From assembly GCA_965116905.1 (NCBI GenBank), contig OZ220732.1:32001-96000 (forward strand): a stretch of 64,000 bases of DNA. The letters run 5' to 3'. Both the position numbers and the translations under genes were made by a program. Under the pieces are notes generated by a model, which was given only the letters and a program-made list of their open reading frames with translations, made no database searches and was not told the origin of the DNA. This document shows, one piece after another, positions 18,174-35,945 of this stretch; the stretch's first letter is position 1, and each line of letters opens with the position of its first letter. Source of the stretch: Longimicrobiales bacterium (GTDB taxonomy: Bacteria; Gemmatimonadota; Gemmatimonadetes; Longimicrobiales; Gaopeijiaceae).

Positions 18174-18941
18174 TCAGCTCTCGTCCCCTCCTTCGGCGAC
18201 GCTTGGCTTGAGCCGCTCGCTAATGATCCTCGCGGTCCTTCTGAGGTTCCAGATGGCTCCCAAGTCTTCGTCCGCGTCCCCTCCGATCTTCGCCAGAAAC
18301 GCTATCGCGACATCACGGTCAAATGACCTGGTCTCGCTCGTCGGATCTATCTTGGATTCGATGAAGAGCCCGGCTTCGACCAGCGATTCGAGACGTCCCA
18401 CGAACTGCGCGGTTCTCATCTCGTTGATGACTTCGTTCATCAGGTGGCTATTCCAGAAGCCCATTTCCACGACGTTCAGAGCGGCGTGCACAGAATCCAA
18501 CCCCGCCTTGAGATCTCCGTACCTAACCGGTCTTCCTCGCTGCCACCTGTCTCGGTGCGCGATATGATGGTTCCTCCGATCCCTGGCCGACTCTGCGTGC
18601 TTTTTCGCATCGGAAACATGTTTTTCCACCTCCTTCTGGAGGTGGGGATGCTTGCGAAGGAATCGCGGCAGGTGATGGACCGATACGCTACGCTTCCCCG
18701 TATCCGTTAGCCGGGTCAGCCTGAGAATCAGGTCGTTCGACAGCACCTCTTGAAGGTCGCCGACGAACGCGGCTCCGAGGGCGTTGAGCATGGCCACTCG
18801 CTTCTCATCCTTACCGAACATTTCCATCAGCTCTTGGTAGCGATCAAGAGCCATGGTCCATTCCTCGTGTATGGCATCGAGCATCTCACCGACCTCAGGT
18901 CCCAGCTTGTCGATGTATTTCTGTCTGGTCTTGTCCGACAT
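18174..18941 (-). CDS. HEPN-domain protein, AbiU2-like
   Basis: Helical; DLILRLTRLTD and RDRRNHHIAHRD (RNxxIAH HEPN-type motif). Confidence 0.72.
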   Translation of the reverse strand: MSDKTRQKYIDKLGPEVGEMLDAIHEEWTMALDRYQELMEMFGKDEKRVAMLNALGAAFVGDLQEVLSNDLILRLTRLTDTGKRSVSVHHLPRFLRKHPHLQKEVEKHVSDAKKHAESARDRRNHHIAHRDRWQRGRPVRYGDLKAGLDSVHAALNVVEMGFWNSHLMNEVINEMRTAQFVGRLESLVEAGLFIESKIDPTSETRSFDRDVAIAFLAKIGGDADEDLGAIWNLRRTARIISERLKPSVAEGGDES

Positions 18942-19396
18942 GGCGGTTTTCCTCTCCCTCAGCGCACGGAGTCGGGGCCCTCGGGCTACGCTCGCCGCTG
19001 ACCCGGCGAAGCAGAGTGCATGGACCGCCTTGGTGGTTGTCATCCTGGCAGGCGGTGGCGATCAGGGTTCCAAGCTAAGCTAGCGAATCTGGGGTTGCCG
19101 TCGGACGGAGACTCCACCCCTGGGTCTCGACCAACCTCCGTCAGGCCAGGATGGGCCAGCCACGCGAAGAAGCCCGTCTGCCGATTGACTCGGTCGCCCG
19201 CTCCGTGACTGCACTCGCTGGTGCCAACCAGCGCCGCCTCGTGCCTGGTAGGTTATCTTGCGAGGGCTCCCCCGCGACGCGGGCGAAGCTCATCAAAGAC
19301 CACCTCGCGACCCACGAGCGGATCGTGGACACGCGCCCGGTGCGGTTCAGTGCCCCCGAAGTTGGATTGCCACAACCAGACCTGAGAAACCGACGG

Positions 19397-20119
19397 ATGG
19401 ACCAAATCAACGAATTCGTGGACGAACGGCAGAAGGCGTGGTGCATCCAGTGCGGCGCGGGGATCGGGGACGTGGACACCAACCGGGACCACGTGCCGTC
19501 CAAGGTTCTCCTGCGCGAGCCCTACCCGGAGAACCTTCCCGTCGTCGACACCTGCGTAGACTGCAACAACGGGTTTTCGGCGGACGAGGAATACCTGCAC
19601 CTGTTCCTGCACTGCGTACTCAGGGGCTCCACGGACCCGGAACAGCACTCGGACGCCAAGACCGCGCGGGCGTTACAGCGCCACAGGAAACTCCGCGCGA
19701 GGATCGAGCGATCAAAGACGGAGTACCGGACGATTGGCGGCGAGACGCGTTGTGTCTGGGAGCCCGAAGAGGAGAGAGTAGAGCGTATCGTGGTGAAGAA
19801 CGCGCGCGGTCACGTCTTCTACGAATACGGCGAACCGATGCTGAGCGAACCGCAACACGTCCGGACCCTGCCCCTAGTGGCGATGCCGACGGCGGCGCGC
19901 GAAGGATTCGAAAACGACCGGATGGCCGGAGAACTGGCAGGTTGGCCCGAAGTGGGCAGTCGGATGATGACGCGCGTGCTCACCGGGCAGGATATGCATG
20001 ACGGCTGGGTCATCGTACAGGACGGTGTCTATCGGTTCCGCCTACAGCAGCGCTCCGGGATCGTCGTCAGGTCCGTTCTCCTCGAATACCTCGGGACCGA
20101 GGTGTACTGGAGCGACTAA
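19397..20119 (+). CDS. HNH endonuclease family protein
   Basis: CIQC...RDHVPSK...NLPVV.TCVDCNNGF zinc-finger/HNH pattern. Confidence 0.8.
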   Translation: MDQINEFVDERQKAWCIQCGAGIGDVDTNRDHVPSKVLLREPYPENLPVVDTCVDCNNGFSADEEYLHLFLHCVLRGSTDPEQHSDAKTARALQRHRKLRARIERSKTEYRTIGGETRCVWEPEEERVERIVVKNARGHVFYEYGEPMLSEPQHVRTLPLVAMPTAAREGFENDRMAGELAGWPEVGSRMMTRVLTGQDMHDGWVIVQDGVYRFRLQQRSGIVVRSVLLEYLGTEVYWSD

Positions 20120-20516
20120 TGAGCAGAGCGACGGTACGCGCTGTCGGGCCGCTCCTCTGAGAGCATGCACTCAATAGGGTCCTTCGCGTCGCACGGTACC
20201 ACGGCCTCGCTTCTCCAATACCAGCAACGACTTCCCCGCCTCCCGGAGGCGTGCTACGGACATGACGGATCCCCGTGACGAGTACGCCCGAGATCAAGTA
20301 GTGGGTACGATCCTCCCCCGGTCCACACGAACCGCATCCGGGCCAGAATCGGCCAGCGACGCGAGAAGGTCGCCCGTCGAATCGACTCGTCGGTCGGCTC
20401 GCTGACGGCGCTCCCTCACGCTACCAACGCCGCATCGTGGCCGGTACGTTATCGTACAAGGGTTCCCGCGCGATGCGGATGACACCCGACCGGAGAGCGA
20501 CCCACGACGCCACGAC

Positions 20517-22655
20517 ATGACCGCGCCCAACCTGAACTGGATTGCCAACTACATCTGGGGCATCGCTGACGACGTGCTCCGCGATGTCTACGTGCGCGGC
20601 AAGTACCGCGACGTGATCCTGCCGATGACTGTGCTCCGGCGGCTGGACGCCGTGCTGGAGCCCACCAAGCAGGCCGTCCTCGACATGAAGGCCACGCTGG
20701 ATGCAGCCGGGGTCGCGAACCAGGACGCCGCGCTTCGGCACGCGGCAGGGCAGGCATTCCACAACACCTCGAAGTTCACGCTCAGAGACCTGCGGGCGCA
20801 GCCGAAGCAGCAACAACTCAAGGCCGATTTCGTGGACTATCTCGACGGATTCTCACCCAACGTGCGGGACATCCTCGACAACTTCGAGTTCCGAAACCAG
20901 ATCCAGAAGCTCTCCAGGGCCGACGTGCTGGGGGCGCTGATCGAGAAACTGACGTCGCCGGACATCAACCTAGGTCCCGATCCGGTAATGGATACCGACG
21001 GCAGGGTCCGGCATCCTGGCCTCGACAACCACGGCATGGGCACGGTCTTCGAGGAACTGATCCGGCGCTTCAACGAGGAGAACAACGAAGAGGCGGGCGA
21101 GCACTTCACGCCGCGCGACGCCGTGACTCTGATGGCGAAGCTGGTATTCCAGCCCCTTGCCAACCGGATCGAGTCCGGCACGTACCTGCTCTACGACGGG
21201 GCTTGCGGGACAGGCGGTATGCTGACCGTGGCCGAGGACGTGCTGCACGGGCTCGCAGAGGGACGGGGCAAGGAGGTGTCCACGCATCTGTACGGCCAGG
21301 AGATCAACGCAGAGACCTATGCGATCTGTAAGGCCGACTTGCTGCTGAAGGGCGACGGCGAGGCCGCCGACAACATCGTGGGCGGCCCGGAGCACTCGAC
21401 GCTCTCGAACGACGCGTTTCCGACGCGGGAGTTCGACTTCATGCTCTCGAACCCGCCGTACGGGAAGAGTTGGAAGACCGACCTTGAGCACATGGGCGGC
21501 AAGAAGGGGATGCGGGATCACCGCTTCCTGATCGAGCACGCGGGCGACCCAGAGTATTCGCTGGTCACCCGCTCCAGCGACGGCCAGATGCTGTTCCTCG
21601 CCAACAAGCTGTCGAAGATGAAGCGGGACACGCCGCTCGGCAGCCGGATCGCTGAAGTCCACAACGGAAGCTCGCTGTTCACCGGGTCGGCGGGCCAGGG
21701 CGAGAGCAACATCCGGCGGTGGATCATCGAGAACGACTGGCTGGAGGCCATCGTCGCGCTGCCGCTTAACATGTTCTACAACACGGGGATTGCCACCTAC
21801 GTCTGGGTGCTCACGAACCGCAAGTCCGAGCACCGGCGGGGCAAGGTGCAGTTGATCGACGCGACGAAGTGGTTCCGTCCGCTCAGGAAGAACCTGGGGA
21901 AGAAGAGCTGCGAACTCGGACCGGAGGACATTGAGCGGATCTGCCGGACGTTCCTCGACTTCGAGGAGACGGAGGAGAGCCGCATTTTCGACAACGAGGT
22001 GTTCGGTTACTGGAAGGTGACCGTCGAGCGGCCACTCCGCCTGAAGGTGGATCTGTCGCCCGCGCGCTGCCTCGTGTTGTCCGAGACGTGCCGCCAAGCG
22101 GGAGAGGGGCCGCTCGCGAACTCCGTCGAGCGGGTGGCCGAGACACTCGGCCCAGGGCCTCACCTAGACTTCAACGTCTTTCTGAAGGCGCTCAAGGCCG
22201 ACATGTCTGGTCGTCGCGCGAAGCTGACGGCTAAGCGCAGGAAGCTGTTGCAGACTGTGCTGGCGGAGCGGGACGAGACGGCGGAGCCGGTAGTCAAGAG
22301 GGTTTACCGTCGCGGAACTGCGCCCGACCCAATCCGGGGACTGTTCGAGTCTGGGGAAGGCCCCAATCCTAGCGTCGTCGAGTACGAACCTGACAGGGTG
22401 CTCCGCGACACCGAGCAGGTTCCGTTCCTAGAAGAGGGCGGAATCGAGGGCTTCCTGCGACGGGAGGTGCTTCCCTATGCCGGGCCCGCGTGGTATGTCG
22501 CCAAGAGAGTGAAGACCGGCTACGAGATCAGCTTCAACCGGTACTTCCACAAGCCCGAGCCGATGCGGACGCTCGATGAGATCAGGGGCGACATTTTGGC
22601 GGTCGAGCGGGAGACCGAGGGACTGCTGCTTGAGATACTGGGACGGCCCAAATGA
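20517..22655 (+). CDS. hsdM: Type I R-M methyltransferase subunit
   Basis: IWGIADDVLR, VILPMTVLRRLD, EEAGEHFTPRD, YDGACGTGGML, GQEIN, SNPPYG, GYEISFNRYF. Confidence 0.96.
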   Translation: MTAPNLNWIANYIWGIADDVLRDVYVRGKYRDVILPMTVLRRLDAVLEPTKQAVLDMKATLDAAGVANQDAALRHAAGQAFHNTSKFTLRDLRAQPKQQQLKADFVDYLDGFSPNVRDILDNFEFRNQIQKLSRADVLGALIEKLTSPDINLGPDPVMDTDGRVRHPGLDNHGMGTVFEELIRRFNEENNEEAGEHFTPRDAVTLMAKLVFQPLANRIESGTYLLYDGACGTGGMLTVAEDVLHGLAEGRGKEVSTHLYGQEINAETYAICKADLLLKGDGEAADNIVGGPEHSTLSNDAFPTREFDFMLSNPPYGKSWKTDLEHMGGKKGMRDHRFLIEHAGDPEYSLVTRSSDGQMLFLANKLSKMKRDTPLGSRIAEVHNGSSLFTGSAGQGESNIRRWIIENDWLEAIVALPLNMFYNTGIATYVWVLTNRKSEHRRGKVQLIDATKWFRPLRKNLGKKSCELGPEDIERICRTFLDFEETEESRIFDNEVFGYWKVTVERPLRLKVDLSPARCLVLSETCRQAGEGPLANSVERVAETLGPGPHLDFNVFLKALKADMSGRRAKLTAKRRKLLQTVLAERDETAEPVVKRVYRRGTAPDPIRGLFESGEGPNPSVVEYEPDRVLRDTEQVPFLEEGGIEGFLRREVLPYAGPAWYVAKRVKTGYEISFNRYFHKPEPMRTLDEIRGDILAVERETEGLLLEILGRPK

Positions 22656-24058
22656 GTGTCAACGGCCTCGGGTCCTATCCGGCCTACCGGGACTCAGACG
22701 TGCGGTGGATGGGAATGCTCCCCGACCATTGGCGCCTAGTGCGGGCCAAGTGGCTGTTCACCAAGATGGATCGTGCCGTTAGGCCGAGTGACGAGGTCGT
22801 TACCTGCTTCCGCGATGGCACGGTGACGCTCCGAAAAAACCGACGAGAACTGGGGTTCACCGAATCCCTGAAAGAGATCGGCTACCAAGGGGTCCGCCGC
22901 GGTGATCTTGTCATTCATGCGATGGATGCCTTCGCCGGTGCTTGTGGTGTCTCCGATTCGGACGGGAAGAGTACGCCCGTGTATTCGGTCTGTACCCCTA
23001 AGGATGAGGGAGTGAGCTCCCGATACTACGCGTTTTGCGTTCGCGAGATGGCTCGGAGTCGGTGGATCATGGCTCTTTCGAGAGGCGTGCGGGAGCGATC
23101 GACCGACTTTCGGTTCGCGGCCTTTGGAAACCAACTGGTCCCAGCACCGTCGGGTCGAGAACAGCGCGCCATCGTCCTCTATCTAGGCTCCGCCGACCGC
23201 CGCATCCGACGCTACATCCGTGCGAAGGAGCGGCTGATCGAGCTATTGGAGGAGTGGAAGCGGGCGCTGATCCACGCGGTCGTCACGGGCCGGATCGATG
23301 TCCGAACCGGCCAACCCTATCCCGCCTACCAAGACTCCGGCGTCGAATGGCTGGGGAAGGTGCCAGAGCATTGGGAGAGACGTCGGTTGAAGACCCTCCT
23401 CCGCGTCGTCGACCGGCGGTCCAGTACTGGAGATGAGACGCTGCTGTCGTTGCGGCGAGACCACGGCGTGGTGGTCTACTCTGAGCACTTCACCCGGCCG
23501 CCACAAGGCAGAACCCTCGTAGGCTACAAGCAGCTTGCTGTAGGACAGCTCGTGGTTAATCGCCTACAGGCCAACAACGGACTTGTGTTCTGTTCGGGTG
23601 TCGACGGTCTCGTCAGCCCCGACTACTCCGTGTTCGATAAGACCGCACCGCTCCAGATGAAGTACTTGAGCGATCTGTTGAGGACATCGACCTATCGTTC
23701 GCACTTCCGGCGGGTTTCCAAGGGCTTGGGAACGGGGACCGCTGGTTTCCTCCGTCTGTATGATGACGTGTTCCTTTCAACGACCGTGTTTCTGCCGCCT
23801 GAACACGAACAGGTTTCCGTACTGGAGTACGTCAGGATCGAGGTCAGAAAGATCGAGGGATTGATAGCGGCGGCAGCAGGTGGTTTGGAGTTGCTTGACG
23901 AGTACCGCACCCGCCTCATCGCCGATGTCGTGACCGGCAAGCTCGACGTACGGGAGGCTGTGGTCCGTTTCCCGGGCGACAATTCCCCCGTCGAGTCAGA
24001 CGACCGGAAGCCCGCGTCGCCCCAAGCTGTGGCCCGAACGCAGGCGCTGTCACGATGA
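22652..24058 (+). CDS. hsdS: Type I R-M specificity subunit
   Basis: Two YPAY.DS.V.W.G..P.HW units and two EQ...LI..VVTG coiled-coil segments separating two TRDs; ATGA overlap with hsdM. Confidence 0.92.
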   Translation: MSVNGLGSYPAYRDSDVRWMGMLPDHWRLVRAKWLFTKMDRAVRPSDEVVTCFRDGTVTLRKNRRELGFTESLKEIGYQGVRRGDLVIHAMDAFAGACGVSDSDGKSTPVYSVCTPKDEGVSSRYYAFCVREMARSRWIMALSRGVRERSTDFRFAAFGNQLVPAPSGREQRAIVLYLGSADRRIRRYIRAKERLIELLEEWKRALIHAVVTGRIDVRTGQPYPAYQDSGVEWLGKVPEHWERRRLKTLLRVVDRRSSTGDETLLSLRRDHGVVVYSEHFTRPPQGRTLVGYKQLAVGQLVVNRLQANNGLVFCSGVDGLVSPDYSVFDKTAPLQMKYLSDLLRTSTYRSHFRRVSKGLGTGTAGFLRLYDDVFLSTTVFLPPEHEQVSVLEYVRIEVRKIEGLIAAAAGGLELLDEYRTRLIADVVTGKLDVREAVVRFPGDNSPVESDDRKPASPQAVARTQALSR

Positions 24059-26253
24059 GTGCCCGCTCCACCCCCGAGCGCCGCGACAACTCGCCGAGCA
24101 TCTCGTCACCTGCGCCTAATGCCCCGCTCTCCTTCCGATTCCACGCCCGCGCTTTGGCTGCATTAGGCCGCGACTTGGTCACCAACGATGTGGTCGCCGT
24201 CATGGAGCTTGTCAAGAACGCCTACGACGCGATGGCTCGGAGGGTTGCGGTACGAATCCGCAGAGACGACACCAGTGGCGGCGATGTCTACATCGAAATC
24301 GAGGATGACGGACACGGCATGGACTACGACACCATCGCCAACGTGTGGTGCGTCGTCGCGACACCGTTTCGAGCCAGGCGACCGATTGCGACGGCCGGTA
24401 GGCGAACGCGGCAGGTTACCGGGGAGAAGGGACTCGGACGCCTCTCGGCCGCCAGGCTCGGGGGAACCCTTGAAATGATCACCCGTGTCGCGGGCGGTCC
24501 CTCGCTCCGCTTCTCACTGGATTGGGATGCACTCCTGAACGCCGACCGACTCGCCGAAGTAGCGTTCCCAGTCGAGAAAGCCCTACCAGAGCAGTTCGGC
24601 GGCAGCCACGGAACGCGAATTCGAATTGGTGCTCTGCGGAGCGTTTGGACGGAGGATCGGATTCGCGAGTTGCGGCAAGGGCTCGCTCGTCTGGTATCCC
24701 CGTTCGCGGGCGCTGAGGACTTCCGGATTGTTCTGCACACAGACGACACCGATGAGACAGCCCCGCTGGAGATCGCCGCACCCGAATTCATGTCCGCACC
24801 GAAATACTCGATGACAGGACGGGTTGACCGTGAGGGGATGATCCGGGCCGAGTACCGTTTTCGACCGCTTGACATCCGCCCCGGTCGGGACCGCTCGGTC
24901 TGCGAGGCCGCGCCATCGACCGATAACCCTCGCCGTGGGGTCGGCCGGGACAACTACGCAGCATCGGCCTGTGGGCCGTTCGAGTTCGAGATTCGAGCAT
25001 GGGATCTCACGCGTGACGACACCCGGGATATCGCGGAGCACTATGACGAACAACGCAGCGCTGTTCGAGCTGCAATAAGGTCTCACTACGGGATCTCGGT
25101 TTACCGCGACCATGTTCTTGTGCTGCCCAAGTCAGAAAAGTCCTACGACTGGCTCGGCCTCGACCTTAGACGAGTCAGTCGGGTCGGCCCTCGTCTCAGC
25201 ACTAGCCAGATTGTGGGATCTGTGCGGATTACGAAAGCTGACAATCCTGGTCTTGTGGACACCAGCGACCGCGAGGGCCTGGTGTCCAATGCTGCGGCGG
25301 AGGTATTCCGCGAGCGAATGGAACGGATCGTCCAACTGCTCGAAGTCGAGCGTAGCGCGGATCGCTTGGAAGAACGGGATAAAGGGCCGGCAGTTGACCT
25401 GTTCGCGAGGCTTAACGCAGAAGCCCTAGTTGAGGGACTGGAGGAAGTCCGCGACGGCAAGCGAGGCATCGGCGCCGCCATCAAGCTTGCCGAACGACAC
25501 AATCGCGAGCTAGAGGGAACGCGTGCAGCGATCGAGAGACGCTTCGGCTACTATAGCCGATTGGCGGTGATCGGCACCATCGCGCAGATGGTGATCCATG
25601 AGATACGAAACCGCACCTCCGTGATCGGCCCGGCGCTGAAGACGGCGGGGAAACTGGCTGGCCGTGTCGCGGACGCCACGTTCAAACGAGCGGCTGACAT
25701 GGCGTGGAGGTCCCTGGAAGCCCTGGACGCGCTTGCCGACCGGTTTGCTCCGCTCGCAAGCCGGGGATACCGGCCGGGACGCCGTTCCTCGCTGCTGGAG
25801 GAGTCCATCGCACGGTGCTTCGAGATGCAGGCCGGACAAGTTCGCAGTGGCAGGATCGCCGTAGAACTGCCGCCCGACACCCGCACGGTGGTGCGCATCG
25901 ATCCGGGCGAGTTGGACACGGTGATGACGAACCTTCTGCTGAATGCTCTATACTGGATTCGGCGCACTGACGGCGAGCGCCTGCTCCGCGTGAGTTTAGA
26001 GCCCGGACCGTCGCCGGATCGCATCTCGGTACGCTTTGACGACTCGGGGCCGGGGATAGACCCGGATGATGCGGAGCGCGTTTTCTGGCCGGGCGTAACC
26101 CGGAAGGCAGACGGGTTCGGAATGGGTCTGACCGTCGCCGCCGAGTTGGTGCGCGGCCGCGGGGGCACGATGCGCACGGAAGTGCCTGGAAAGTTGGGGG
26201 GAGCGACATTCGAGTTCGATCTGCCGCTGGTTCCATCGAAGAAGGAGACGTGA
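24055..26253 (+). CDS. Soluble histidine kinase with N-terminal HSP90/MutL/MORC-like GHKL ATPase and C-terminal HisKA-HATPase
   Basis: N-terminal ELVKNAYDA, EDDGHGM, GEKGLGR, GTRI; C-terminal IHEIRN H-box, NLLLNA N-box, DDSGPGI G1, GFGMGL G2. Confidence 0.88.
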   Translation: MSARSTPERRDNSPSISSPAPNAPLSFRFHARALAALGRDLVTNDVVAVMELVKNAYDAMARRVAVRIRRDDTSGGDVYIEIEDDGHGMDYDTIANVWCVVATPFRARRPIATAGRRTRQVTGEKGLGRLSAARLGGTLEMITRVAGGPSLRFSLDWDALLNADRLAEVAFPVEKALPEQFGGSHGTRIRIGALRSVWTEDRIRELRQGLARLVSPFAGAEDFRIVLHTDDTDETAPLEIAAPEFMSAPKYSMTGRVDREGMIRAEYRFRPLDIRPGRDRSVCEAAPSTDNPRRGVGRDNYAASACGPFEFEIRAWDLTRDDTRDIAEHYDEQRSAVRAAIRSHYGISVYRDHVLVLPKSEKSYDWLGLDLRRVSRVGPRLSTSQIVGSVRITKADNPGLVDTSDREGLVSNAAAEVFRERMERIVQLLEVERSADRLEERDKGPAVDLFARLNAEALVEGLEEVRDGKRGIGAAIKLAERHNRELEGTRAAIERRFGYYSRLAVIGTIAQMVIHEIRNRTSVIGPALKTAGKLAGRVADATFKRAADMAWRSLEALDALADRFAPLASRGYRPGRRSSLLEESIARCFEMQAGQVRSGRIAVELPPDTRTVVRIDPGELDTVMTNLLLNALYWIRRTDGERLLRVSLEPGPSPDRISVRFDDSGPGIDPDDAERVFWPGVTRKADGFGMGLTVAAELVRGRGGTMRTEVPGKLGGATFEFDLPLVPSKKET

Positions 26254-27398
26254 TGCGCCTCAGAGTGCTCGTAATCGACGACGACGAAGCGGTGCGCGAG
26301 AGGGTTCGCATGACTCTCGAGACTGCTATCGCACAACCACCGGAGCAGGAGTGGGAAGTCTTCGACTATGGCTTCGAAGGCGTGCGTGACTCTTTGCTTG
26401 CCATCCGTCCCGACGTGGTGATCCTGGACTTGGTGGATGGCGAACCACCTGACGGTCAACCGCAAGGCAACGTGCGCTTCCGCGAGATCCGGGACACATG
26501 GTTCTGTCCGGTAGTGGTGTACTCGGCGTTTCCGAACACGCAGGATTTCGGCCACCCTCTTGTCCACACCGTGGTGAAGGCCGCGGATGCCATGGAGAAG
26601 GTCCTGATGTGCCTGGCTGAGCTTGCTCCGATGGCAAGAGCGATACGATCCGTCCACGACGAGTTCGACTCACGAATCAGGAAGTCTCTGCACGACTCAG
26701 TAGGCACTCTCCGCGAGCAGATCGGGGAGGAAAGCGATGATGAGCCCGTCCTTCGCCGGGCGGTTCGCCGGCTGGTCGCAGCAGGAGTTGATGTTGGTGA
26801 TGTCGGAGCTGAGGGCATGGCTCCTTGGGAGCGATTTGTCATCCCGCCGCTGGGCGGCCACCTTCTGATCGCCGACATTCTGAAGAAAACGGGTGCGCAG
26901 TGGCACAGCGAGGAGTCTTTTCGGGTCGTGCTTACTCCTTCGTGCGATCTCGTGCCAGGAGAGTCGGGCCAGCCCAAGGCCCACCGCGTGCTGGTGGCTT
27001 GCTGTGAACAGCTAACGCGGCTCGGGAGGATTCAACTGAAGCCCGGGGAACGGCTGAAGGGAAAGAGGGAAACGCGGGTCCGGGGGTTCCTGAACGATGG
27101 AATGGTGGATGGTTTCCTGCCCATTCCCAAGTTCCAGGGTCATGTGCCGCTGATGGTCGCGAATCTCAAGGCACTTGAGTTGATTGAGTGGCAGAGGGTA
27201 TCGCCCGTGCCAATCGGCGGGAATGAGGAGGCGCAGGACTTCGAGTTCGAGCGCGTGGCTTCCACCGACAGCCCGTTTCGCGAAATGGTAGTGTGGGCCT
27301 ACCTGCGCGTGACCGGTCGACCGGGACTCCCCGAGATTGACGTGCAGCAGTGGTTGACTGATATCTCTGATCACTTCGAGCAAGAGGTGCATCCGTGA
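26250..27398 (+). CDS. Response-regulator receiver fused to uncharacterised C-terminal domain
   Basis: VLVIDDD, PDVVILD, VVVYSA, VVK receiver residues; C-terminal ADIL..VVLTPSCDL..RVAS..SPFRE..RPGLP; no HTH. Confidence 0.8.
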   Translation: MMRLRVLVIDDDEAVRERVRMTLETAIAQPPEQEWEVFDYGFEGVRDSLLAIRPDVVILDLVDGEPPDGQPQGNVRFREIRDTWFCPVVVYSAFPNTQDFGHPLVHTVVKAADAMEKVLMCLAELAPMARAIRSVHDEFDSRIRKSLHDSVGTLREQIGEESDDEPVLRRAVRRLVAAGVDVGDVGAEGMAPWERFVIPPLGGHLLIADILKKTGAQWHSEESFRVVLTPSCDLVPGESGQPKAHRVLVACCEQLTRLGRIQLKPGERLKGKRETRVRGFLNDGMVDGFLPIPKFQGHVPLMVANLKALELIEWQRVSPVPIGGNEEAQDFEFERVASTDSPFREMVVWAYLRVTGRPGLPEIDVQQWLTDISDHFEQEVHP

Positions 27399-28423
27399 AG
27401 GCGATCGATCTCTTCTGTGGTGCCGGGGGACTCACGCTCGGACTGAGGCGCGCGGGCTGGGACGTTCTTGTCGGCATCGATGTCGATGAGGCCGTCGGCG
27501 AGACCTATCGGCGCAACAATCCCAACACCGGGTTTCTGGCAGCCGACCTGCGATCCGTGACCGAAGAGGACATATTTTCGTTGGCGGGCAATACCCCTCG
27601 CCGCGAGCTGCTCCTAGCGGGATGCGCCCCCTGTCAGCCCTTCTCCAAACAGCGACGACGGCGGGGGATAGCCCGATGTCCCGACGGTACACTTCTCGGT
27701 CAGTTCGCTCGCCTCGTGGTTGCATTGCGGCCTGGCGCGGTGCTGATGGAGAACGTCCCCGGCATCAGAACCGTGCCGGGATTCAGTTCCTTTCGGCGCT
27801 TTCTCAAGATCCTCCGCGATTGCGGGTACGGTTTTGAGCACTGCGTCCTCAACGCCTGCGACTTCGAGGTCCCGCAGCATCGCCGCCGGTGCGTACTGCT
27901 GGCCCTGCACGAGTTGGAGGCGAGGTTGCCGACACCGATCATGCGCGAGCCCGCCCAAGGTGGCGCGACCGTGCGTGCCAGCATCGGACGGTTTCCGGCC
28001 ATCGCGGCGGGCGAAGCTCACCGCTGCATCCCGAATCACGTCGCTGCGGGCCTGTCGCCGCTGAACTTGGAGAGAATACGGGCCACGCCTGCGGACGGCG
28101 GCAGCCGACGGAATTGGCCGGAACGCCTGACGCTCGACTGTCACCGCCGCACTCTCGGGTTCAGCGATGTCTACGGACGAATGTGGTGGGACCGCGTGGC
28201 CCCAACGCTCACCAGCCGGTGCAACAGCCTCTCGAATGGCAGGTTCGGCCACCCAGAGCAGGACCGAGCCATCAGCCTGCGGGAAGCAGCCGCGCTCCAG
28301 ACGTTTCCCGACGACTACGAGTTCTTCGGCACAAGGAACCGAATCGCCGGGTGGATCGGTAACGCCGTGCCCGTATCGTTTGCCGAGGCGCTGGGAACGG
28401 CGGCCATCAGGGCCGCTGCCTGA
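27395..28423 (+). CDS. dcm: DNA (cytosine-5) methyltransferase
   Basis: DLFCGAGG, GCAPCQPFS, MENVPG, PQHRRR, HPEQDRAISLREAAALQTFP, IGNAVP. Confidence 0.96.
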   Translation: MKAIDLFCGAGGLTLGLRRAGWDVLVGIDVDEAVGETYRRNNPNTGFLAADLRSVTEEDIFSLAGNTPRRELLLAGCAPCQPFSKQRRRRGIARCPDGTLLGQFARLVVALRPGAVLMENVPGIRTVPGFSSFRRFLKILRDCGYGFEHCVLNACDFEVPQHRRRCVLLALHELEARLPTPIMREPAQGGATVRASIGRFPAIAAGEAHRCIPNHVAAGLSPLNLERIRATPADGGSRRNWPERLTLDCHRRTLGFSDVYGRMWWDRVAPTLTSRCNSLSNGRFGHPEQDRAISLREAAALQTFPDDYEFFGTRNRIAGWIGNAVPVSFAEALGTAAIRAAA

Positions 28424-28426
28424 CAC

Positions 28427-28876
28427 TTGTCGGACAAAGCCGGAAGGGAACCGACGGCCGAGTCCGCACCGTCCCCAGAACGTAGCGCCAACATGGCCCG
28501 CATCGGCGCGAAAGACACGCGACCGGAGCTCGCGGTTCGGCGACTCCTCCATCGCTTGGGCTACCGCTACCGCCTTCACCGGGGTGATCTTCCTGGGCGG
28601 CCCGATATCTGCTTCCCCGGTCGTAGAAAGGCGATCTTCGTTCACGGCTGCTTTTGGCACCGGCACGACGGGTGCCGACGCACAACCACCCCGAAGACAC
28701 GCACTTCCTTCTGGAAAGACAAGTTCGAGAGGAACATCGTGCGCGACCGACTGAACCTGTCGGATCTTGGAAAGCTCGGGTGGGAAGCGATGGTGGTCTG
28801 GGAGTGCGAGACGACCGACCTTGAGGGGCTCGCGCCGCGCCTCGTGCGATTCCTCGATGGCGAATTGCCGAGATGA
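28427..28876 (+). CDS. vsr: Very short patch repair endonuclease
   Basis: RSANMARIGAKDTRPE, LPGRPDI, IFVHGCFWHRH, FWKDK, VVWECE. Confidence 0.95.
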   Translation: MSDKAGREPTAESAPSPERSANMARIGAKDTRPELAVRRLLHRLGYRYRLHRGDLPGRPDICFPGRRKAIFVHGCFWHRHDGCRRTTTPKTRTSFWKDKFERNIVRDRLNLSDLGKLGWEAMVVWECETTDLEGLAPRLVRFLDGELPR

Positions 28877-28892
28877 CATTACGTTGGATTCC

Positions 28893-31892
28893 ATGACCAC
28901 GGACACTTCCGAACGGAGCCTTGAACGCCTGATCTGCGAGGCGCTTACTGGTGATCCGTGCGAGCCGCCGTCGAGCGGAACGGTCGGTGAGCCGTCCCCC
29001 GGATACGGCGGCGTCGGCTGGTCTCCCGGTAACGGTCGCGACTACGACCGCGAGTACTGCGTCGACCTCGTCCAACTCCGCACCTTCCTCCACGCCACGC
29101 AGCCCGAATCCGCCCGCGCCCTCCGGCTCGCCGAGGACTGCGCGGCGCGCCGGAAGTTCCTGTCGCGGCTTCATGGCGAGATCAACAAGCGCGGCACCAT
29201 CGACGTGCTCCGGCGCGGCGTCAAGCGCGGCCCCCACGACCTGGAGCTCTTCCACGGCACCCCATCGGCCGGGAACGAGACCGCCCGGCGGCTGTTCGAG
29301 CTGAACCGCTTCACGGTCACCCGCCAGCTACGCTACAGCCGGAACGAGACCCAGCGCGCACTCGACATCGCGCTGTTCATCAACGGCCTTCCCGTCTTCA
29401 CCCTCGAACTCAAGAACAATCTCACGAAGCAGACGGTCCACGATGCCATCCGCCAGTACCAGAGAGATCGCGACCCGAGGGAGCCGCTCTTCCGGCTTGG
29501 ACGCTGCGTGGCGCACTTCGCGGTGGACGAGGGCGAGGTCCGCTTCTGCACCCACCTGGAGGGCAAAGCCTCCTGGTTCCTGCCGTTCAACCGAGGCTGG
29601 AACCAGGGAGCGGGCAACCCACCCAACCCGGACGGCCTCAAGACTGAGTACCTTTGGCGCGACGTGCTGGCCCGCGGGAGCCTGACGGACATCCTCGAAA
29701 ACTACGCCCAGATGTTGACCCCGAAGGACGCCAAGGCGGGGAGGAAGAAACGCATCCTGATCTGGCCCCGGTACCAGCAACTCGATGTGGTGCGCCGCCT
29801 GCTGGACGACGCGCGGCGTCACGGGGCCGGGAAACGATACCTGATCCAGCATTCAGCGGGCAGCGGCAAGAGCTATTCGATCGCATGGCTCGCCCACCAG
29901 ATGATCCCCCTCAAGAAGGACGGCAAGTCGGTCTTTGACTCGATCATCGTAGTCACCGACCGCAAGGTCCTCGATGGCCAGATCCACGACACGATCAAGC
30001 AGTACGCGCAGGTGGGATCGACGGTTGGGCATGCGGACAGGGCCGCCGACCTGAAAACCCTCATCGAGCAGGGCAAGAAGGTCATCATCTCAACGATCCA
30101 GAAGTTCCCGTTCATCCTCGACGAGATCGGGAGCGGGCACCGTCAGCGTAGCTTCGCGATCATCATCGACGAGGCGCATTCGAGCCAAGGCGGGAAGGCC
30201 GCTGGAGCGATGGCGGCCGCGCTCGGCGAGGCGGACGGCGAGGACGGGTACGAGACCTACGAGGACCGCGTCAACCACGAGATCGAGTCTCGGAAGATGC
30301 TCGACAACGCCAGCTATTTCGCCTTCACGGCCACGCCGAAGAACAAGACGCTGGAGCTGTTCGGCGAGCCCGATCCGCAGAGCGACGGCACGGTCAGGCG
30401 CCTTCCGGTCCACAACTACAGCATGAAGCAGGCGATCCAGGAAGGGTTCATCTTGGACGTGCTCGAACACTACACACCCGTCGAGAGCTACTACAGGCTC
30501 GCTAAGACGGTCGAGGAGGACCCGGAGTACGACGTCCGGAAGGCCGGTAAGAAGCTCCGGCGCTACGTCGAGGGCCACGAACACGCGATCCGGCTCAAGG
30601 CCGAGATCATGGTGGACCACTTCCACGAGCAGGTGATCGCCCAGCACAAGCTTGGAGGCAACGCGCGGGCGATGGTGGTCACGAACGGGATCGAGCGCGC
30701 GATCCAGTATTTCCACGCCATCCGAAACTACCTGACGGAGCGCAGGAGTCCTTACGAAGCCCTTGTCGCGTTCTCGGGCGAGCACGACTACGGGGGAGAC
30801 CGGGTGAGCGAGGCCAGCCTGAACGGCCTCCCCTCGTCGAAGATCCCAGAGACGTTCCGGGAGGACCCGCACCGGTTCCTCGTCTGCGCGGACAAGTACC
30901 AGACCGGCTACGACGAGCCGCTGCTGCACACCATGTACGTGGACAAGACGCTCTCGGGGATTAGGGCGGTCCAGACGCTTTCGCGCCTGAATCGGTCGCA
31001 CCCAGAGAAGCGAGACGTGTTCGTGCTCGACTTCCTGAACGACACCGAGACCATCACGAAGGCCTTCTCGGATTACTACCGGACCACGGTCCTGTCCGAC
31101 GAGACCGACCCCGACCGGCTCCACGACCTACAGGCCGACCTTGACGGTGCGCAGGTCTACTCTCCCGATCTGGTCCGGGCGTTCGTGAAGCTGTATCTGG
31201 ACGGCGCGGACCGAGATCGGCTCGACCCCATCCTCGATCGGTGCGTGGCGGTGTATCTCAAGGACTTGGACGAGGACGGGCAGGTCCGGTTCAAGGGCAG
31301 GGCCAAGGCGTTCGCGCGCGCCTACGCTTTCCTGTCCTCGATCCTCCCCTACAACAACCTGGGCTGGGAGGAGCGCTCGATCTTCCTGAACTTCCTGATC
31401 CCGAAGCTGCCGGCACCCGAGGAGCCCGATCTGTCGAAGGGCATCCTTGAGAAAATCGACATGGACAGCTACCGCGTCGAGAAGCATCAGATGCGGAAGA
31501 TCATCCTTGAGGACGAGGACTCGGAGATCGATCCGGTCAGCACGGGCGAGGGCGGCGGCAAGGGCGAGATCGAGACCGACCGCCTTTCAGCGATCATTGA
31601 GGAGTTCAACGACCTGTTCGGTGGAATCGAGTGGGGGGACCGCGACCGTGTCATCCAGACGGCCACCGTGGACATTCCGGCCTCGGTGGCGAAGGACGTA
31701 AGGTTCAAGAACGCGCGGCAGAACTCGGACAGGGCGAACGCCCGCATCGAGTCCGACAAGGCAACGGAGAGGGCGGTGCTTGAGGTCGTGCGGGACAACA
31801 CCCGACTCTTCAAGCTGTTCGCGGACAATCCAGACTTCCGGCGGTGGCTGGCGGACACGGCATTCAGGCTGGCCTACGAAGCGGCGGACTGA
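28893..31892 (+). CDS. hsdR: Type I R-M restriction subunit
   Basis: DIALFINGLPVFTLELKN nuclease motif, HSAGSGKS Walker A, DEAHSS, FTATPK, TGYDEP, QTLSRLNR. Confidence 0.96.
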   Translation: MTTDTSERSLERLICEALTGDPCEPPSSGTVGEPSPGYGGVGWSPGNGRDYDREYCVDLVQLRTFLHATQPESARALRLAEDCAARRKFLSRLHGEINKRGTIDVLRRGVKRGPHDLELFHGTPSAGNETARRLFELNRFTVTRQLRYSRNETQRALDIALFINGLPVFTLELKNNLTKQTVHDAIRQYQRDRDPREPLFRLGRCVAHFAVDEGEVRFCTHLEGKASWFLPFNRGWNQGAGNPPNPDGLKTEYLWRDVLARGSLTDILENYAQMLTPKDAKAGRKKRILIWPRYQQLDVVRRLLDDARRHGAGKRYLIQHSAGSGKSYSIAWLAHQMIPLKKDGKSVFDSIIVVTDRKVLDGQIHDTIKQYAQVGSTVGHADRAADLKTLIEQGKKVIISTIQKFPFILDEIGSGHRQRSFAIIIDEAHSSQGGKAAGAMAAALGEADGEDGYETYEDRVNHEIESRKMLDNASYFAFTATPKNKTLELFGEPDPQSDGTVRRLPVHNYSMKQAIQEGFILDVLEHYTPVESYYRLAKTVEEDPEYDVRKAGKKLRRYVEGHEHAIRLKAEIMVDHFHEQVIAQHKLGGNARAMVVTNGIERAIQYFHAIRNYLTERRSPYEALVAFSGEHDYGGDRVSEASLNGLPSSKIPETFREDPHRFLVCADKYQTGYDEPLLHTMYVDKTLSGIRAVQTLSRLNRSHPEKRDVFVLDFLNDTETITKAFSDYYRTTVLSDETDPDRLHDLQADLDGAQVYSPDLVRAFVKLYLDGADRDRLDPILDRCVAVYLKDLDEDGQVRFKGRAKAFARAYAFLSSILPYNNLGWEERSIFLNFLIPKLPAPEEPDLSKGILEKIDMDSYRVEKHQMRKIILEDEDSEIDPVSTGEGGGKGEIETDRLSAIIEEFNDLFGGIEWGDRDRVIQTATVDIPASVAKDVRFKNARQNSDRANARIESDKATERAVLEVVRDNTRLFKLFADNPDFRRWLADTAFRLAYEAAD

Positions 31893-32616: not shown

Positions 32617-32650
32617 GCCAGCCTACCCATTGTCATACAATGGGGCTGGC
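32617..32650. other. Candidate oriT hairpin
   Basis: GCCAGCC-TA-CCCATTGT-CAT-ACAATGGG-GCTGGC inverted repeat ~100 bp upstream of mobC, ending in CTGGC like the ColE1-family nic context. Confidence 0.55.
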
Positions 32651-32753
32651 GAGGGGTGGCCTCCGCCCCCCCTTCGATCCCCCCGCTCTTCGCGCTCCCG
32701 TGGAGGTCGCGGACGGGGGCTCCGCCCCCCTTCCCCCGTGCCGGTGCGGCGTG

Positions 32754-33095
32754 ATGCCTGAGCGCCGCACCGCCGTCGTCACCGCCCGCGTGTCGGCGAC
32801 CGAGTCCGCCGACTGGCGGGCCAAGGCGAAGGCCGCCGGCGTGCCCCTGTCGGCGCTGATCCGGCGGGCGATGGCCCGCACGCGGACGTGGACCGCCCGC
32901 GCGGCCGAGGTCGAGCGCGAGCGCACCCGGCAGGTCTCGCGGATCGGGAACAACCTGAACCAGATCGCGCGGTGGGCCAATCGCCACAAGGGGGCGGCCG
33001 AGGCCGTAGAGGTCCTCGCCCGCCTCGTCTCCATCGAGCGGGCGCTTACGGCGCTGGCCCGCTTCGAGAGCCCGGAGGACGACAATGCACATTAA
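32754..33095 (+). CDS. mobC: MobC/MbeC relaxosome accessory protein
   Basis: RHH-like N-terminus and RIGNNLNQIARWAN signature; overlaps relaxase start. Confidence 0.92.
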   Translation: MPERRTAVVTARVSATESADWRAKAKAAGVPLSALIRRAMARTRTWTARAAEVERERTRQVSRIGNNLNQIARWANRHKGAAEAVEVLARLVSIERALTALARFESPEDDNAH

Positions 33096-34656
33096 GTTCC
33101 TCGCGCACGGGACCGGGTCGGCGTGGGCTGCGGCCAAGTACCTCCTCGGGGAGCAGGATGCGGCCGGGAAGCCGCGCGAGGGCGTCGAGGTGCTGCGGGG
33201 GAATCCGGAGATGGTGGCCGCGGTCGCCGACTCGCTCGACTTCGAGCACAGGTACACGTCGGGCGTGATCGCTTGGGCGCCGGACGACCATCCCACCGAC
33301 GAGCAGATCGAGCGCGTCCTCGACGACTTCGAGAAGACGGCCTGGGCGGGGATGGAGCCCGACCGCTACGCATGGGCGGCCGTGCTCCACCGTGAAGAGG
33401 GCGGGGGTGCCCATGTCCATGTCCTTGCGGCGCGTTGCGACCTTGAGACCGGCCGCAGCCTCAACATCGCGCCTCCGGGCTGGCAGCGAACGTTCGATCC
33501 GCTCCGCGACGCTTTCAACCACGAGCACGGCTGGGGCCGTCCGGACGATCCGGCGAGGGCCAGAGTGCAGCAGCCCGGACACCGCGCCTACATCGAGGCG
33601 GCGCAGTTGCGGACCGGGCTCCGGCTCGAAGCCTCACCGCGCGACCTGATCCGCGACTACCTGATCCAGCGTGTCGAGCACGGCATGGTGCGGGACCGCC
33701 ACGATGTCCTCGCCGCGCTGCGGGAGGCCGGCCTCGAAGTGCCGCGCCAAGGCAAGGACTATCTCACCGCGATGGACCCCGAGACCGGGGGCCGGTGGCG
33801 GCTGAAAGGAGAACTGTACGCACTTGACTTCGACCGCGAACGACTTGAGCGACCGGCTGAGGAAGCGGCTGGAGAGCGAACGCAAGGAAATCGAGGAGTT
33901 GACCGCGAGCGAGCTGAAGCGGCTCGCCGAGAACTCGCGGCGCGTTGCGAGGAACGCGCTCAGTACAATCGAGCGCGATACGGAGGAGGCGACCGGGCGG
34001 ATGCGCGAGTTGCTCGTCAAGGCGTGGCAACGGCCTCTGATCGTCGGCCTGAGCCTTTGGCTCGGTTTCTTCGGCGGAAGCTGGGCGACGATGCGCTGGT
34101 TGGCGGGGAGCATCCAGACCCGGATCGAGGCCCGCACCGAACTGGGCCGGGACATCGAGGACGCCCGGCGGACGCTTGCCCAACTGGAGGTGGACACTTG
34201 GGGGCTCGTGTTCCACGAGATCGAGGGCGAGCGGTTCGTGGTGGTGCCGGACGCGGCGTTGGACGATCCGCCCTGGAGGGTGGACGGTCGCCCGGCGTTG
34301 AAGCTGTCGAACGAGTGAAGGAGGTCTATGACCGCGTTAGAGGAGCAGTTGACGAGGGCCTTGCGGAGGTTGTCCGCGCAGTACGAGACGGAACAGCGGC
34401 GGCAATCCGGGCAGCTCGAAGCCTTGCGGCGGCACGTCGAGCGGCAAGGCGGAGAGAACGAAGCCTTGAGGCGGCACGTCGAGCGGCTGAGCGGGGAGAA
34501 CGAAGTCTTGCAGCGGCGAATCGAGCGGCTCGACGGGCAAGTGACACGCTTGGCCGAGTACTATGGGACATCCGCCGCCGCGAGACCGAGCGGTCGCGGC
34601 TGGTGATAAGGCCGCCGACGCCCGGGCCGGACCGCGATGCCGGACCGAGCCGCTGA
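33085..34656 (+). CDS. mobA: Relaxase, ColE1 MbeA/MOBP5-like
   Basis: MHIKF..G.G....YLL, VLRGNP, YTSGV, HREEGGGAHVH, DLETGRSLN, RLKG.LY. Confidence 0.9.
   Translation: MHIKFLAHGTGSAWAAAKYLLGEQDAAGKPREGVEVLRGNPEMVAAVADSLDFEHRYTSGVIAWAPDDHPTDEQIERVLDDFEKTAWAGMEPDRYAWAAVLHREEGGGAHVHVLAARCDLETGRSLNIAPPGWQRTFDPLRDAFNHEHGWGRPDDPARARVQQPGHRAYIEAAQLRTGLRLEASPRDLIRDYLIQRVEHGMVRDRHDVLAALREAGLEVPRQGKDYLTAMDPETGGRWRLKGELYALDFDRERLERPAEEAAGERTQGNRGVDRERAEAARRELAARCEERAQYNRARYGGGDRADARVARQGVATASDRRPEPLARFLRRKLGDDALVGGEHPDPDRGPHRTGPGHRGRPADACPTGGGHLGARVPRDRGRAVRGGAGRGVGRSALEGGRSPGVEAVERVKEVYDRVRGAVDEGLAEVVRAVRDGTAAAIRAARSLAAARRAARRRERSLEAARRAAERGERSLAAANRAARRASDTLGRVLWDIRRRETERSRLVIRPPTPGPDRDAGPSR
33824..34318 (+). 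CDS. MbeB/MobB-like protein overprinted inside relaxase gene
   Basis: Coiled-coil N-terminus, one hydrophobic segment, TWGL..HE..GERFVVVP tail; AAGGAG RBS; position as mbeB in ColE1. Confidence 0.65.
   Translation: MTSTANDLSDRLRKRLESERKEIEELTASELKRLAENSRRVARNALSTIERDTEEATGRMRELLVKAWQRPLIVGLSLWLGFFGGSWATMRWLAGSIQTRIEARTELGRDIEDARRTLAQLEVDTWGLVFHEIEGERFVVVPDAALDDPPWRVDGRPALKLSNE
34328..34606 (+). CDS. MbeD/MobD-like coiled-coil protein overprinted inside relaxase gene
   Basis: MTALEEQLTRALRRLSAQY resembles MbeD N-terminus; GGAGGT RBS. Confidence 0.72.
   Translation: MTALEEQLTRALRRLSAQYETEQRRQSGQLEALRRHVERQGGENEALRRHVERLSGENEVLQRRIERLDGQVTRLAEYYGTSAAARPSGRGW
34418..34536. repeat. 42-bp imperfect tandem repeat (~3 copies)
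   Basis: Units begin at 34418, 34460, 34502 (GAAGCCTTG.GGCGGCACGTCGAGCGGC...GAGAAC). Confidence 0.8.
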
Positions 34657-34763
34657 TGGTCGCGTTCGCAAACGGGAGCCGTGAGTCTGGCGCGGGCGCA
34701 CTCGCTCCGCGAGCTTCCGGGCAGGCGGATCGTGCAGTCCATCGAATCGAGAGGAATCGAACG

Positions 34764-35933: not shown

Positions 35934-35945
35934 CGGGAACGGATC

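Follow-up and report, generated by a model that had tools for sequence, protein, structure and literature searches.

A compact two-component cassette with its own cytosine methylase, probably carried as cargo in a type I restriction-modification operon of a Longimicrobiales bacterium

The DNA analyzed here (the window) comprises 64,000 nucleotides of contig OZ220732.1 (positions 32,001 to 96,000; assembly GCA_965116905.1) from a Longimicrobiales bacterium. Between positions 20517 and 31892, it contains a type I restriction-modification (R-M) operon in which four further genes lie between hsdS and hsdR, encoding a GHKL/histidine kinase, a protein with a receiver (REC) domain and a putative effector, the C5 cytosine DNA methyltransferase Dcm and the mismatch endonuclease Vsr. 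Our results suggest that this block (24055..28876) is very probably an autonomous cassette, representing a compact branch of the HEF_HK family described in 2021, that is lodged as cargo in the hsd operon. Comparisons across genomes indicate that the cassette is horizontally mobile and that its conserved unit consists of the kinase gene, the REC gene and dcm, often joined by vsr. The kind of cassette is already known from a computational description (PMC8011034). New are the assignment of a fold to the output domain of the REC protein, a link between the sensor module of the kinase and HgiDII-type restriction enzymes, and the cargo-dock behavior of the type I lineage.

All seven genes lie on the plus strand in the order hsdM-hsdS-kinase-REC-dcm-vsr-hsdR, which had been proposed in an earlier, sequence-only reading of this DNA and was confirmed by the open reading frames (ORFs) and by searches of Pfam, PADLOC and NCBIfam. 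The type I set is complete, with hsdM, hsdS and hsdR all of full length, and operons at 73-89% identity contain the same three genes. hsdM (20517..22655) encodes a methyltransferase subunit of 712 amino acids (Pfam N6_Mtase and HsdM_N; PADLOC MTase_I, E 1.3e-243), and hsdS (22652..24058) a specificity subunit of 468 amino acids with two target-recognition halves, which has no Pfam match and is recognized by PADLOC (Specificity_I, E 1.2e-68, and 42 further models). The restriction subunit HsdR (28893..31892) shows the Pfam domains HSDR_N, SWI2_SNF2, ResIII and T1R_D3-like (NCBIfam hsdR, E 1e-57); its start was set at the ATG at 28893, and the open frame extends back to 28767. An assignment to the MADS system was rejected, as hsdM and hsdS match mad2 and mad5 weakly, in the manner of generic type I-like subunits (PADLOC, NCBIfam). 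Within the block, the genes for the kinase (P0001; 24055..26253; 732 amino acids) and the response regulator (P0002; 26250..27398; 382 amino acids) are followed by dcm (27395..28423; 342 amino acids; Pfam DNA_methylase, E 2.1e-53) and by vsr (28427..28876), which encodes a full-length very-short-patch T:G mismatch endonuclease of 149 amino acids (Pfam Vsr, E 8.5e-28; NCBIfam vsr, E 3e-40). The dcm translation carries the sequences FCGAGG, PCQ, ENV, QHRRR and GNAVP, which we take to be the usual C5 methylase motifs, and these motifs are intact.

The tight packing of the operon, another point of the earlier reading, was reproduced from the sequence: four junctions show 4-nt overlaps (ATGA at 22652 and 24055, GTGA at 26250 and 27395), the TTG start codon of vsr at 28427 follows dcm after a gap of 3 nt, and 16 nt separate the end of the vsr stop codon (28876) from the ATG of hsdR. 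The REC gene may in fact start at the ATG at 26253, which would preserve the overlap with the kinase stop codon, because its relatives begin with the sequence MRLRV. An identical order of the seven genes was found in two other loci (L009 and L016) and also in a third (L013), in which an insertion sequence resides within the REC gene. Thus, the arrangement in the window is not a chance juxtaposition. A crude promoter and terminator scan of positions 19000-33000 was uninformative, with 0 promoter-like and 4 terminator-like sites, fewer than in shuffled sequences.

The genes of the block belong to large families. For P0002, at least 585 equally long relatives at ~50% identity were found, nearly all of them unnamed, and a profile of its output domain retrieved 630 cluster representatives at E <= 1e-3, 376 at E <= 1e-10 and 229 at E <= 1e-30. 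The best 150 of these representatives are almost all 340-400 amino acids long and have the domain at residues ~155-370. The corresponding search with the kinase returned more than 1,700 proteins. No relative was found on viral contigs; metagenome contigs yielded three short loci, which were kept outside the counts given below and the most distant of which (L023, 31% identity) had no informative Pfam match.

The linkage of the block to its surroundings was analyzed by tblastn with the seven window proteins in 20 loci taken from named assemblies of Chloroflexota, Acidobacteriota, Gemmatimonadota and one member of the Paracoccaceae. In 16 of these loci, the kinase gene, the REC gene and dcm follow one another directly in this order. 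The REC gene is immediately followed by dcm in all 19 loci that cover this DNA and immediately preceded by the kinase gene in 17 of 19, and vsr is present in half of the loci (10/20), on either side of the block. In five loci (L003, L009, L010, L013 and L016; 6/21 with the window included), the block is flanked by hsd genes that run in its own direction, and a convergent hsd operon adjoins it in two others (L001 and L002). No hsd genes were detected in 13 of the 20 loci with the window proteins at E <= 1e-5 and a Pfam analysis of 41 chosen ORFs; seven of these 13 (L004, L005, L006, L008, L012, L014 and L018) cover ~8-9 kb on each side. The occurrence of the kinase-REC-dcm core without hsd genes argues that it constitutes an autonomous cassette of defense islands. 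The 41 neighboring ORFs, drawn from eight loci, include AbiE, Z1/DUF4420/AIPR, McrBC, Mrr and HNH_2 proteins, a DEAD/MZB helicase of 2077 amino acids, transposases and an integrase; the neighbors in L004 are ordinary metabolic genes. A neighborhood search with and without hsd genes, as suggested in the sequence-only reading, therefore gives a twofold answer, in that the block recurs with hsd genes (6/21) and with defense genes, but also stands without hsd genes in the seven well-flanked loci.

Where the block is nested, its insertion point varies, corresponding to the hsdM/hsdS gap in L003 and to the hsdS/hsdR gap in the window, L009, L013 and L016. The hsd families vary as well, with an HsdM or HsdR only ~42-43% identical to that of the window in L003 and L010. 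Five loci contain a damaged REC gene. In two of them, it is split by DDE-transposase insertions (L010:8391-10007 and L013:8036-9772) at different positions and in two orientations, with kinase gene and dcm intact; in L014, it contains a stop codon, and L015 and L020 retain a REC remnant together with dcm. Four of the five loci retain dcm as an open frame. Such a decay of the REC gene with retention of dcm would fit a harmful effector that is held in check by a persistent methylase.

Several of the loci have additional features. L007, L009, L011 and L019 are four contigs of one metagenome-assembled genome, each with a copy of the cassette, one nested among hsd genes and at least one not; this genome either harbors several paralogous cassettes or represents a mixed bin. 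In L006, a Z1/DUF4420/AIPR block with its own C5 methylase (12766-18533, minus strand) lies directly beside the cassette, corresponding to the putative system that features in the relevant passages of Miller et al., 2022 (PMC9523054). In L008, an ORF of 2077 amino acids with DEAD, Helicase_C and MrfA Zn-binding domains (12621-18854, minus strand) is located downstream of the cassette and an HNH_2 gene upstream of it.

The type I operon was also considered from the side of its own relatives. The 16 closest hsd operons (L056-L071), all from the phylum of the window, have hsdM products 78-89% and hsdR products 73-87% identical to those of the window, and the kinase, REC, dcm and vsr genes were found in none of them. 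Four are compact, and in the other twelve, the hsdM/hsdS gap, the hsdS/hsdR gap or both contain additional DNA. Among 24 cargo ORFs scanned, 13 match families, comprising GmrSD_N (2), AAA_13/SMC_N (an ATPase of 863 amino acids), PIN (3), a Phd antitoxin, HTH_66 (2), PIN_10/DUF5615 (2), DUF433 and others, with HEPN_AbiV reaching a score below the cut-off; the other 11 match nothing. We read this type I lineage as a putative dock for swappable defense cargo, and nesting inside such a dock is, therefore, weak evidence of functional dependence. In a sample of 401 genomes from the phylum, P0002 occurs in two, the window's own and one other, and in no other sampled genome of the same genus; a close HsdM (E <= 1e-100) is present in 56. 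The G+C content at third codon positions (GC3) is 0.86 in hsdM, 0.88 in hsdR and 0.87 in the host flank, as opposed to 0.71 in the kinase gene, 0.70 in the REC gene, 0.76 in dcm and 0.74 in vsr, with hsdS at 0.72. The difference between the block (0.70-0.76) and hsdM and hsdR thus fits a later insertion. When nesting within hsd operons was mapped onto a maximum-likelihood tree of 18 kinases, five changes were required, at least four of which are forced by well-supported branches, and the distribution showed no clustering beyond that of randomized labels (as low a score in 285 of 500 shuffles). This scatter suggests that the cassette has entered or left hsd operons repeatedly.

The kinase P0001 is predicted to be a sensor kinase, putatively soluble, that combines the elements HATPase_c_3, dimerization and histidine phosphotransfer (DHp) domain and HATPase_c. 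It comprises a paraMORC/MutL-like GHKL ATPase module (residues ~26-229), a conserved middle domain (~230-440), a helical linker, the DHp domain with the histidine H515 and a catalytic and ATP-binding (CA) domain (~580-732). Pfam places HATPase_c_3 at residues 47-161 and HATPase_c at 616-725, and the histidine-kinase models of NCBIfam match residues 480-731. A profile of 31 relatives retrieved ZraS, FixL and HK853 from the PDB over residues 490-730 and MutL over residues 41-102, and the C-terminal part is that of a canonical HisKA-type kinase. Among the 31 kinases, E51, N55, D84/G86/G88 and G123/K125/G126/G128 are invariant in the N-terminal ATPase, as are H515-E516, N626/N630, D662/D663/G665/G667 and G687/G689/G691 in the kinase part, such that the H-box (H515-E516) and the N, G1 and G2 boxes show little or no variation. 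From this conservation, the two ATPase sites and the site of histidine phosphorylation seem to be functional. For the middle domain, neither a profile search of the PDB nor the ESM Atlas, which gave unnamed clusters alone, revealed a structural or family match.

The closest link of the N-terminal module leads to restriction enzymes. Residues 29-228 of P0001 match the N-terminus of the BbrUII/HgiDII family of NCBIfam (NF050001; E 2.2e-23), PADLOC likewise returned type II restriction endonuclease models alone, all at the N-terminus, and an hhalign comparison with seven BbrUII/HgiDII enzymes reached a probability of 99% (E 2.9e-18), confined to residues 33-229. The N-terminal ATPase is thus homologous to that of BbrUII/HgiDII restriction enzymes, a new link. 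P0001 is not itself such an enzyme by the curated standard, scoring 82.7 bits against a cut-off of 550, over residues 29-228 only. The proteins also diverge beyond this module: the enzymes continue into a C-terminal part with an invariant D...ExK pattern, which we take to be a PD-(D/E)XK-type signature, whereas in P0001, the module is followed by a different middle domain and then by a histidine kinase. Seven bona fide BbrUII/HgiDII members, identified in 301 genomes, have dcm (39-44% identical to that of the window) in six cases and vsr in five within 1.5 kb. An association of paraMORC ATPases with cytosine methylases and Vsr was already reported by Iyer et al., 2008 (PMC2292703), whose passages on this subject contain no kinase fusion.

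The second signaling protein, P0002, comprises a REC domain (residues 1 to ~113) with the phospho-acceptor D60, a long helix (114-158), a linker (~160-200), an output domain (~203-357) and terminal helices. It matches no Pfam family at E <= 0.01, and its REC domain was recognized by fold, with a Z score of 15.8, a root-mean-square deviation (rmsd) of 2.0 and 118 aligned residues for 3hv2_B; all 50 matches listed in this fold search align within model residues ~1-170. Across 36 receivers, D60 and K110 are invariant, D10/D11 are near-invariant and position 92 is S or T. By their motifs, P0001 and P0002 form a complete kinase-receiver pair. A phmmer search of the PDB with P0002 gave designed ankyrin repeats alone (residues 169-226; E 4.7e-5 and weaker), a match that we rejected as driven by the Ala/Gly/Asp/Val-rich composition of the linker. 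This linker (window 26730-26850) is strongly conserved (AVRRLVAARVD, WERF), yet modeled with a predicted local distance difference test score (pLDDT) below 50. As pure conjecture, it may act as an in-cis inhibitory segment, like the tail of an antitoxin.

The output domain was assessed with a model of residues 158-382, folded alone from a 14-row alignment (mean pLDDT 67.1; predicted template modeling score (pTM) 0.65). When this model was compared with 48,161 representative PDB chains, ranks 1-11 were all occupied by MazF, CcdB or Kid toxins, led by MazF-mt3 (8zws_A; Z 9.5, rmsd 2.9, 102 of 105 residues aligned) and including S. aureus MazF (Z 8.8), CcdB (Z 8.6) and Kid (Z 8.1). Rank 12 was the type III toxin CptN (Z 6.0), followed by a drop to Z 4.1, such that these 12 chains alone reached a Z score of 5. 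The match covers model residues 46-200, equivalent to residues ~203-357 of P0002. Foldseek gave no match at E <= 1e-3, and the matches listed were all MazF or CcdB-type toxins, the best at E 1.5e-3. On the strength of this model, the output domain likely has the MazF/CcdB/Kid fold, which would suggest a function as a toxin. It keeps ~50 invariant positions, and conservation alone points to R225, S231-C232-D233, C252-E253, S338-T339-D340-S341 and R344-E345 as candidate functional residues. A helix-turn-helix (HTH) or other DNA-binding family was not found in P0002 even at Pfam E <= 10, and the modeled output domain appears to be of a non-DNA-binding type. In the ESM Atlas, the domain matched unnamed clusters alone; the nearest named cluster (score 0.77) contains PF19192 in 13% of its members and may serve as a lead only. 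A predicted complex of two copies (alignment residues 40-225), modeled without controls, scored 0.08 relative to a mark of 0.42 and provides no evidence either way.

The sequence-only reading knew of no experimental characterization of the arrangement, but its general kind has been described before. Bellieny-Rabelo, Pretorius and Moleleki described computationally a HATPase_c_3 + HEF_HK + HATPase_c kinase encoded beside a Response_reg_2 protein, linked these elements to C5 methylases, Vsr and type I and type II genes, and speculated on a role in R-M regulation; in the passages on these elements, the output domain is assigned neither a fold nor a role (PMC8011034). Such HEF_HK elements share with the window the HATPase_c_3 + DHp + HATPase_c kinase, an adjoining receiver with an uncharacterized C-terminal part, a C5 methylase nearby and, often, Vsr or type I genes. 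An hhalign comparison of the 31-row P0001 alignment with four kinases passing the PF19191 (HEF_HK) threshold yielded a probability of 100% (E 6.1e-49; residues 26-722 against 3-983), indicating that P0001 is homologous to the HEF_HK kinases over its full length. The larger family has ~250 additional helical residues before the DHp domain. The question whether the block matches a named system thus has a divided answer, since this homology is accompanied by a lack of matches to PF19191 and PF19192 (Response_reg_2) in the window proteins, even at E <= 10. PF19191 is absent from all 120 kinase relatives listed, as judged by precomputed Pfam families, PF19192 has 0 matches in the window's own genome at E <= 1, and the P0002 relatives listed carry PF00072 or no family. 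The window cassette, therefore, represents a compact, uncatalogued branch.

Four bona fide PF19192 loci, obtained from another class, where they were found in 4 of 351 genomes, show further differences. Their order is C5 methylase, kinase, receiver, whereas the methylase of the window lies downstream of the REC gene, and HEF_HK elements are larger (kinase 975-988 versus 732 amino acids; receiver 525-635 versus 382). For the receivers, hhalign indicated at most a possible relation to Response_reg_2, with a probability of 55% (E 1.2e-4, 4 rows) or 24% (E 8.4e-4, 33 rows), in both cases confined to residues ~190-239 and centered on a hydrophobic strand followed by S-C-D or P-C-D. Beside one of these bona fide cassettes, in a low-GC genome, an ArdA anti-restriction gene is located ~640 nt downstream (L077:3019-3528, minus strand).

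Two experimentally validated systems invite comparison. The five-gene phage defense system Ambrosia comprises, besides its GHKL kinase, a REC protein (AbrC) reported to contain a winged HTH (wHTH) domain, an N6 adenine methylase, an XRE regulator and an HNH nuclease; D60A in the REC protein abolishes defense, and the system is said to join R-M and two-component features (bioRxiv 10.1101/2025.09.30.679545). By description, it resembles the window block in that one operon combines a methylase with a GHKL/histidine kinase and a REC protein. However, the block has a C5 methylase together with Vsr and a putative toxin-fold output, its operon proteins match no XRE/HTH or HNH family, and P0002 shows no wHTH. 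Detocs demonstrates that a pair of a kinase and a REC protein with a toxic effector can be an abortive-infection system (bioRxiv 10.1101/2023.01.24.525353). The likeness here lies in the working principle, phosphorylation by a kinase of a receiver fused to a cell-arresting effector in place of a DNA-binding domain. Detocs differs from the block in its TPR-type sensor, in a third protein that serves as a "buffer" receiver, in an effector that is mostly a PNP ATP-nucleosidase, and in the lack of a methylase. A stand-alone receiver gene was not found in the window operon, and no PADLOC family matches P0002, with the coverage of Detocs in this release left unchecked. What stands of the original statement is that no experimental study of the compact kinase/REC/C5-methylase/Vsr cassette was found in the full-text literature, subscription journals being outside this coverage. 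The passages retrieved from a BREX paper (PMC12839542) and from Miller et al., 2022 (PMC9523054) are not about this cassette.

We infer that the cassette may keep the partners and the logic of GHKL-type type II R-M systems (methylase, Vsr and GHKL ATPase), with the kinase replacing the nuclease half. We propose that it works as an R-M-like defense or addiction module in which phosphotransfer to a toxin has taken the place of the nuclease, a chain to which we give, as a whole, somewhat less than even credence. Dcm would mark the DNA of the cell, and Vsr would repair the T:G mismatches arising from the deamination of 5-methylcytosine. The MutL/MORC-like N-terminal module of the kinase may contact DNA, or respond to a signal linked to the methylation state of the DNA, by ATP-driven dimerization, and the dimerized module would then switch on autophosphorylation at H515 and transfer to D60. 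Phosphorylation of D60 would release the toxin-fold domain to cleave RNA, like MazF and Kid, or to poison gyrase, like CcdB. The resulting arrest of the cell would abort an infection or, alternatively, kill cells that have lost the methylase. The hsd operon would contribute only a promoter, translational coupling and co-transfer. A bolder version, which we regard as doubtful, would see a nuclease-free form of R-M in which a clamp-kinase reads DNA methylation and fires a MazF/CcdB-fold toxin, with the same output throughout the HEF_HK/Response_reg_2/Ambrosia superfamily, whose receivers are now read as transcription factors, and with hsd operons as preferred docks.

Several observations weigh against this picture. 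The model of the output domain is of moderate quality (pLDDT 67, pTM 0.65, 14 rows), and its Z score of 9.5 is suggestive rather than decisive because best values of 7-8 are common for models without a true match. Pfam at E <= 10, phmmer against the PDB and a PDB profile search revealed no link to MazF or CcdB by sequence, and the catalytic residues of these toxins could not be mapped onto the domain. On the sensor side, no methyl-DNA-reading domain of known type was found in P0001. With Ambrosia, the phage gained no protection from being methylated by the methylase of the system, and the authors of that study favor transcriptional control (10.1101/2025.09.30.679545); if the same holds across the superfamily, the proposed R-M-like logic would be wrong. 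As for autonomy, a very divergent type I gene could have escaped the hsd search of the 20 loci. Moreover, recurrent nesting, seen in 6/21 loci with at least four changes on the tree, is not fully explained by pure hitch-hiking, and the nested position may offer some selective benefit.

The nesting is also the starting point for the explanation offered by the sequence-only reading, in which the kinase monitors the type I enzyme or its adenine methylation and the REC effector serves as a PrrC-like back-up upon R-M inhibition. PrrC-type accessory genes do nest in type I hsd loci, and PrrC depends on its type I partner. The block resembles them as a non-R-M defense or toxin element between hsd genes, at sites where relatives of the window operon hold GmrSD, AAA_13, PIN and HEPN-type cargo. 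The AAA_13 ATPase gene occupies the hsdM-hsdS slot of such relatives and belongs to a family that presumably includes PrrC/RloC-type proteins. The placement of the block in the hsdS/hsdR gap, together with the overlap of stop and start codons, would likewise suit a type I monitor, as would the six nested loci, the two more with an adjoining convergent hsd operon and the scatter of nesting on the kinase tree, which implies that it was gained or kept repeatedly. However, the core stands without hsd genes in seven well-flanked loci, in contrast to the obligate type I association of PrrC, all 16 close hsd relatives are devoid of the block, and both the insertion point and the hsd family differ between loci. 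In addition, the block is accompanied in 19 of 19 loci by a cytosine methylase of its own, an enzyme that a type I sensor would not need, and the REC protein occurs in 2 of 401 genomes as compared to 56 of 401 for a close HsdM. We, therefore, consider a sensor of type I R-M status very unlikely. What survives of the original proposal is a two-component module in a defense setting, consistent with the complete kinase-receiver pair, the predicted non-DNA-binding output and the defense genes in its neighborhood; its tie to type I R-M is not supported.

Two other explanations retain the cassette and assign its output a different role. In one of them, which appears rather unlikely, phosphorylated P0002 acts as a regulator that switches on R-M genes (dcm, vsr, hsdR or an unlinked nuclease) or the activity of their products. 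Control of R-M by signaling was indeed speculated upon for the HEF_HK elements (PMC8011034), to whose kinases P0001 is homologous over its full length, and the authors of the Ambrosia study report infection-induced expression and a wHTH in AbrC (10.1101/2025.09.30.679545). Against such a role, P0002 shows no DNA-binding family and its modeled output resembles toxins instead of a wHTH domain, the conserved core includes no separate nuclease to control, and translational coupling in one operon leaves little room for an internal promoter, with 0 promoter-like sites in the crude scan. Quite unlikely, in turn, is a role of the toxin-fold domain in binding rather than catalysis, either to bring in or set free a nuclease, for example Vsr or HsdR, or to attach to DNA or RNA as an adaptor. 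In favor of such a role, proteins of one fold can differ in function, and binding is also how CcdB works. Furthermore, E. coli MutL, a relative of the N-terminal module of P0001, presumably interacts functionally with Vsr, which is encoded in 10 of the 20 loci. The MutL-Vsr interaction is among the subjects discussed by Iyer et al., 2008 (PMC2292703). However, roughly half of the loci or more lack Vsr, and the same applies to HsdR, whereas the output domain keeps its ~50 invariant positions, so the core appears to need no outside partner encoded nearby.

The autonomous cassette and its type I host reside on a larger integrative element. A genome of the same genus (L096) is syntenic with the window at 16044-17942 and 37247-48750 and has 1.47 kb between these two flanks, so positions ~17943-37246 represent an inserted island of ~19.3 kb, whose GC content is 0.639 as compared to 0.683 in the rest of the window. 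Upstream of hsdM, the island carries an abortive-infection-type HEPN_AbiU2 gene (18174..19043, minus strand; Pfam PF18734, E 1.4e-16) and, just before hsdM, an ORF of 322 amino acids without a family (19151..20119, plus strand). Downstream of hsdR, there are a relaxase-like gene (33085..34656, plus strand; Pfam Relaxase, MobA/VirD2-like, E 5.2e-7) and the tyrosine integrase gene of the island (34563..35933, plus strand; Pfam Phage_integrase, E 7.2e-19). Another genome of the same genus has a different island at the same site, with a relaxase region that is 73% identical. No tRNA genes were found in the window.

Collectively, our findings describe a large cassette family that escapes the Pfam models of its nearest described relatives and that no PADLOC model names. 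The cargo-dock behavior of the type I lineage matters for the interpretation of "nested" genes elsewhere. If the output domain indeed has a toxin fold, it would provide a concrete mechanism for the family that is testable by point mutants. In this case, the cassette would use a phosphorelay to join the classical logic of R-M to abortive infection.

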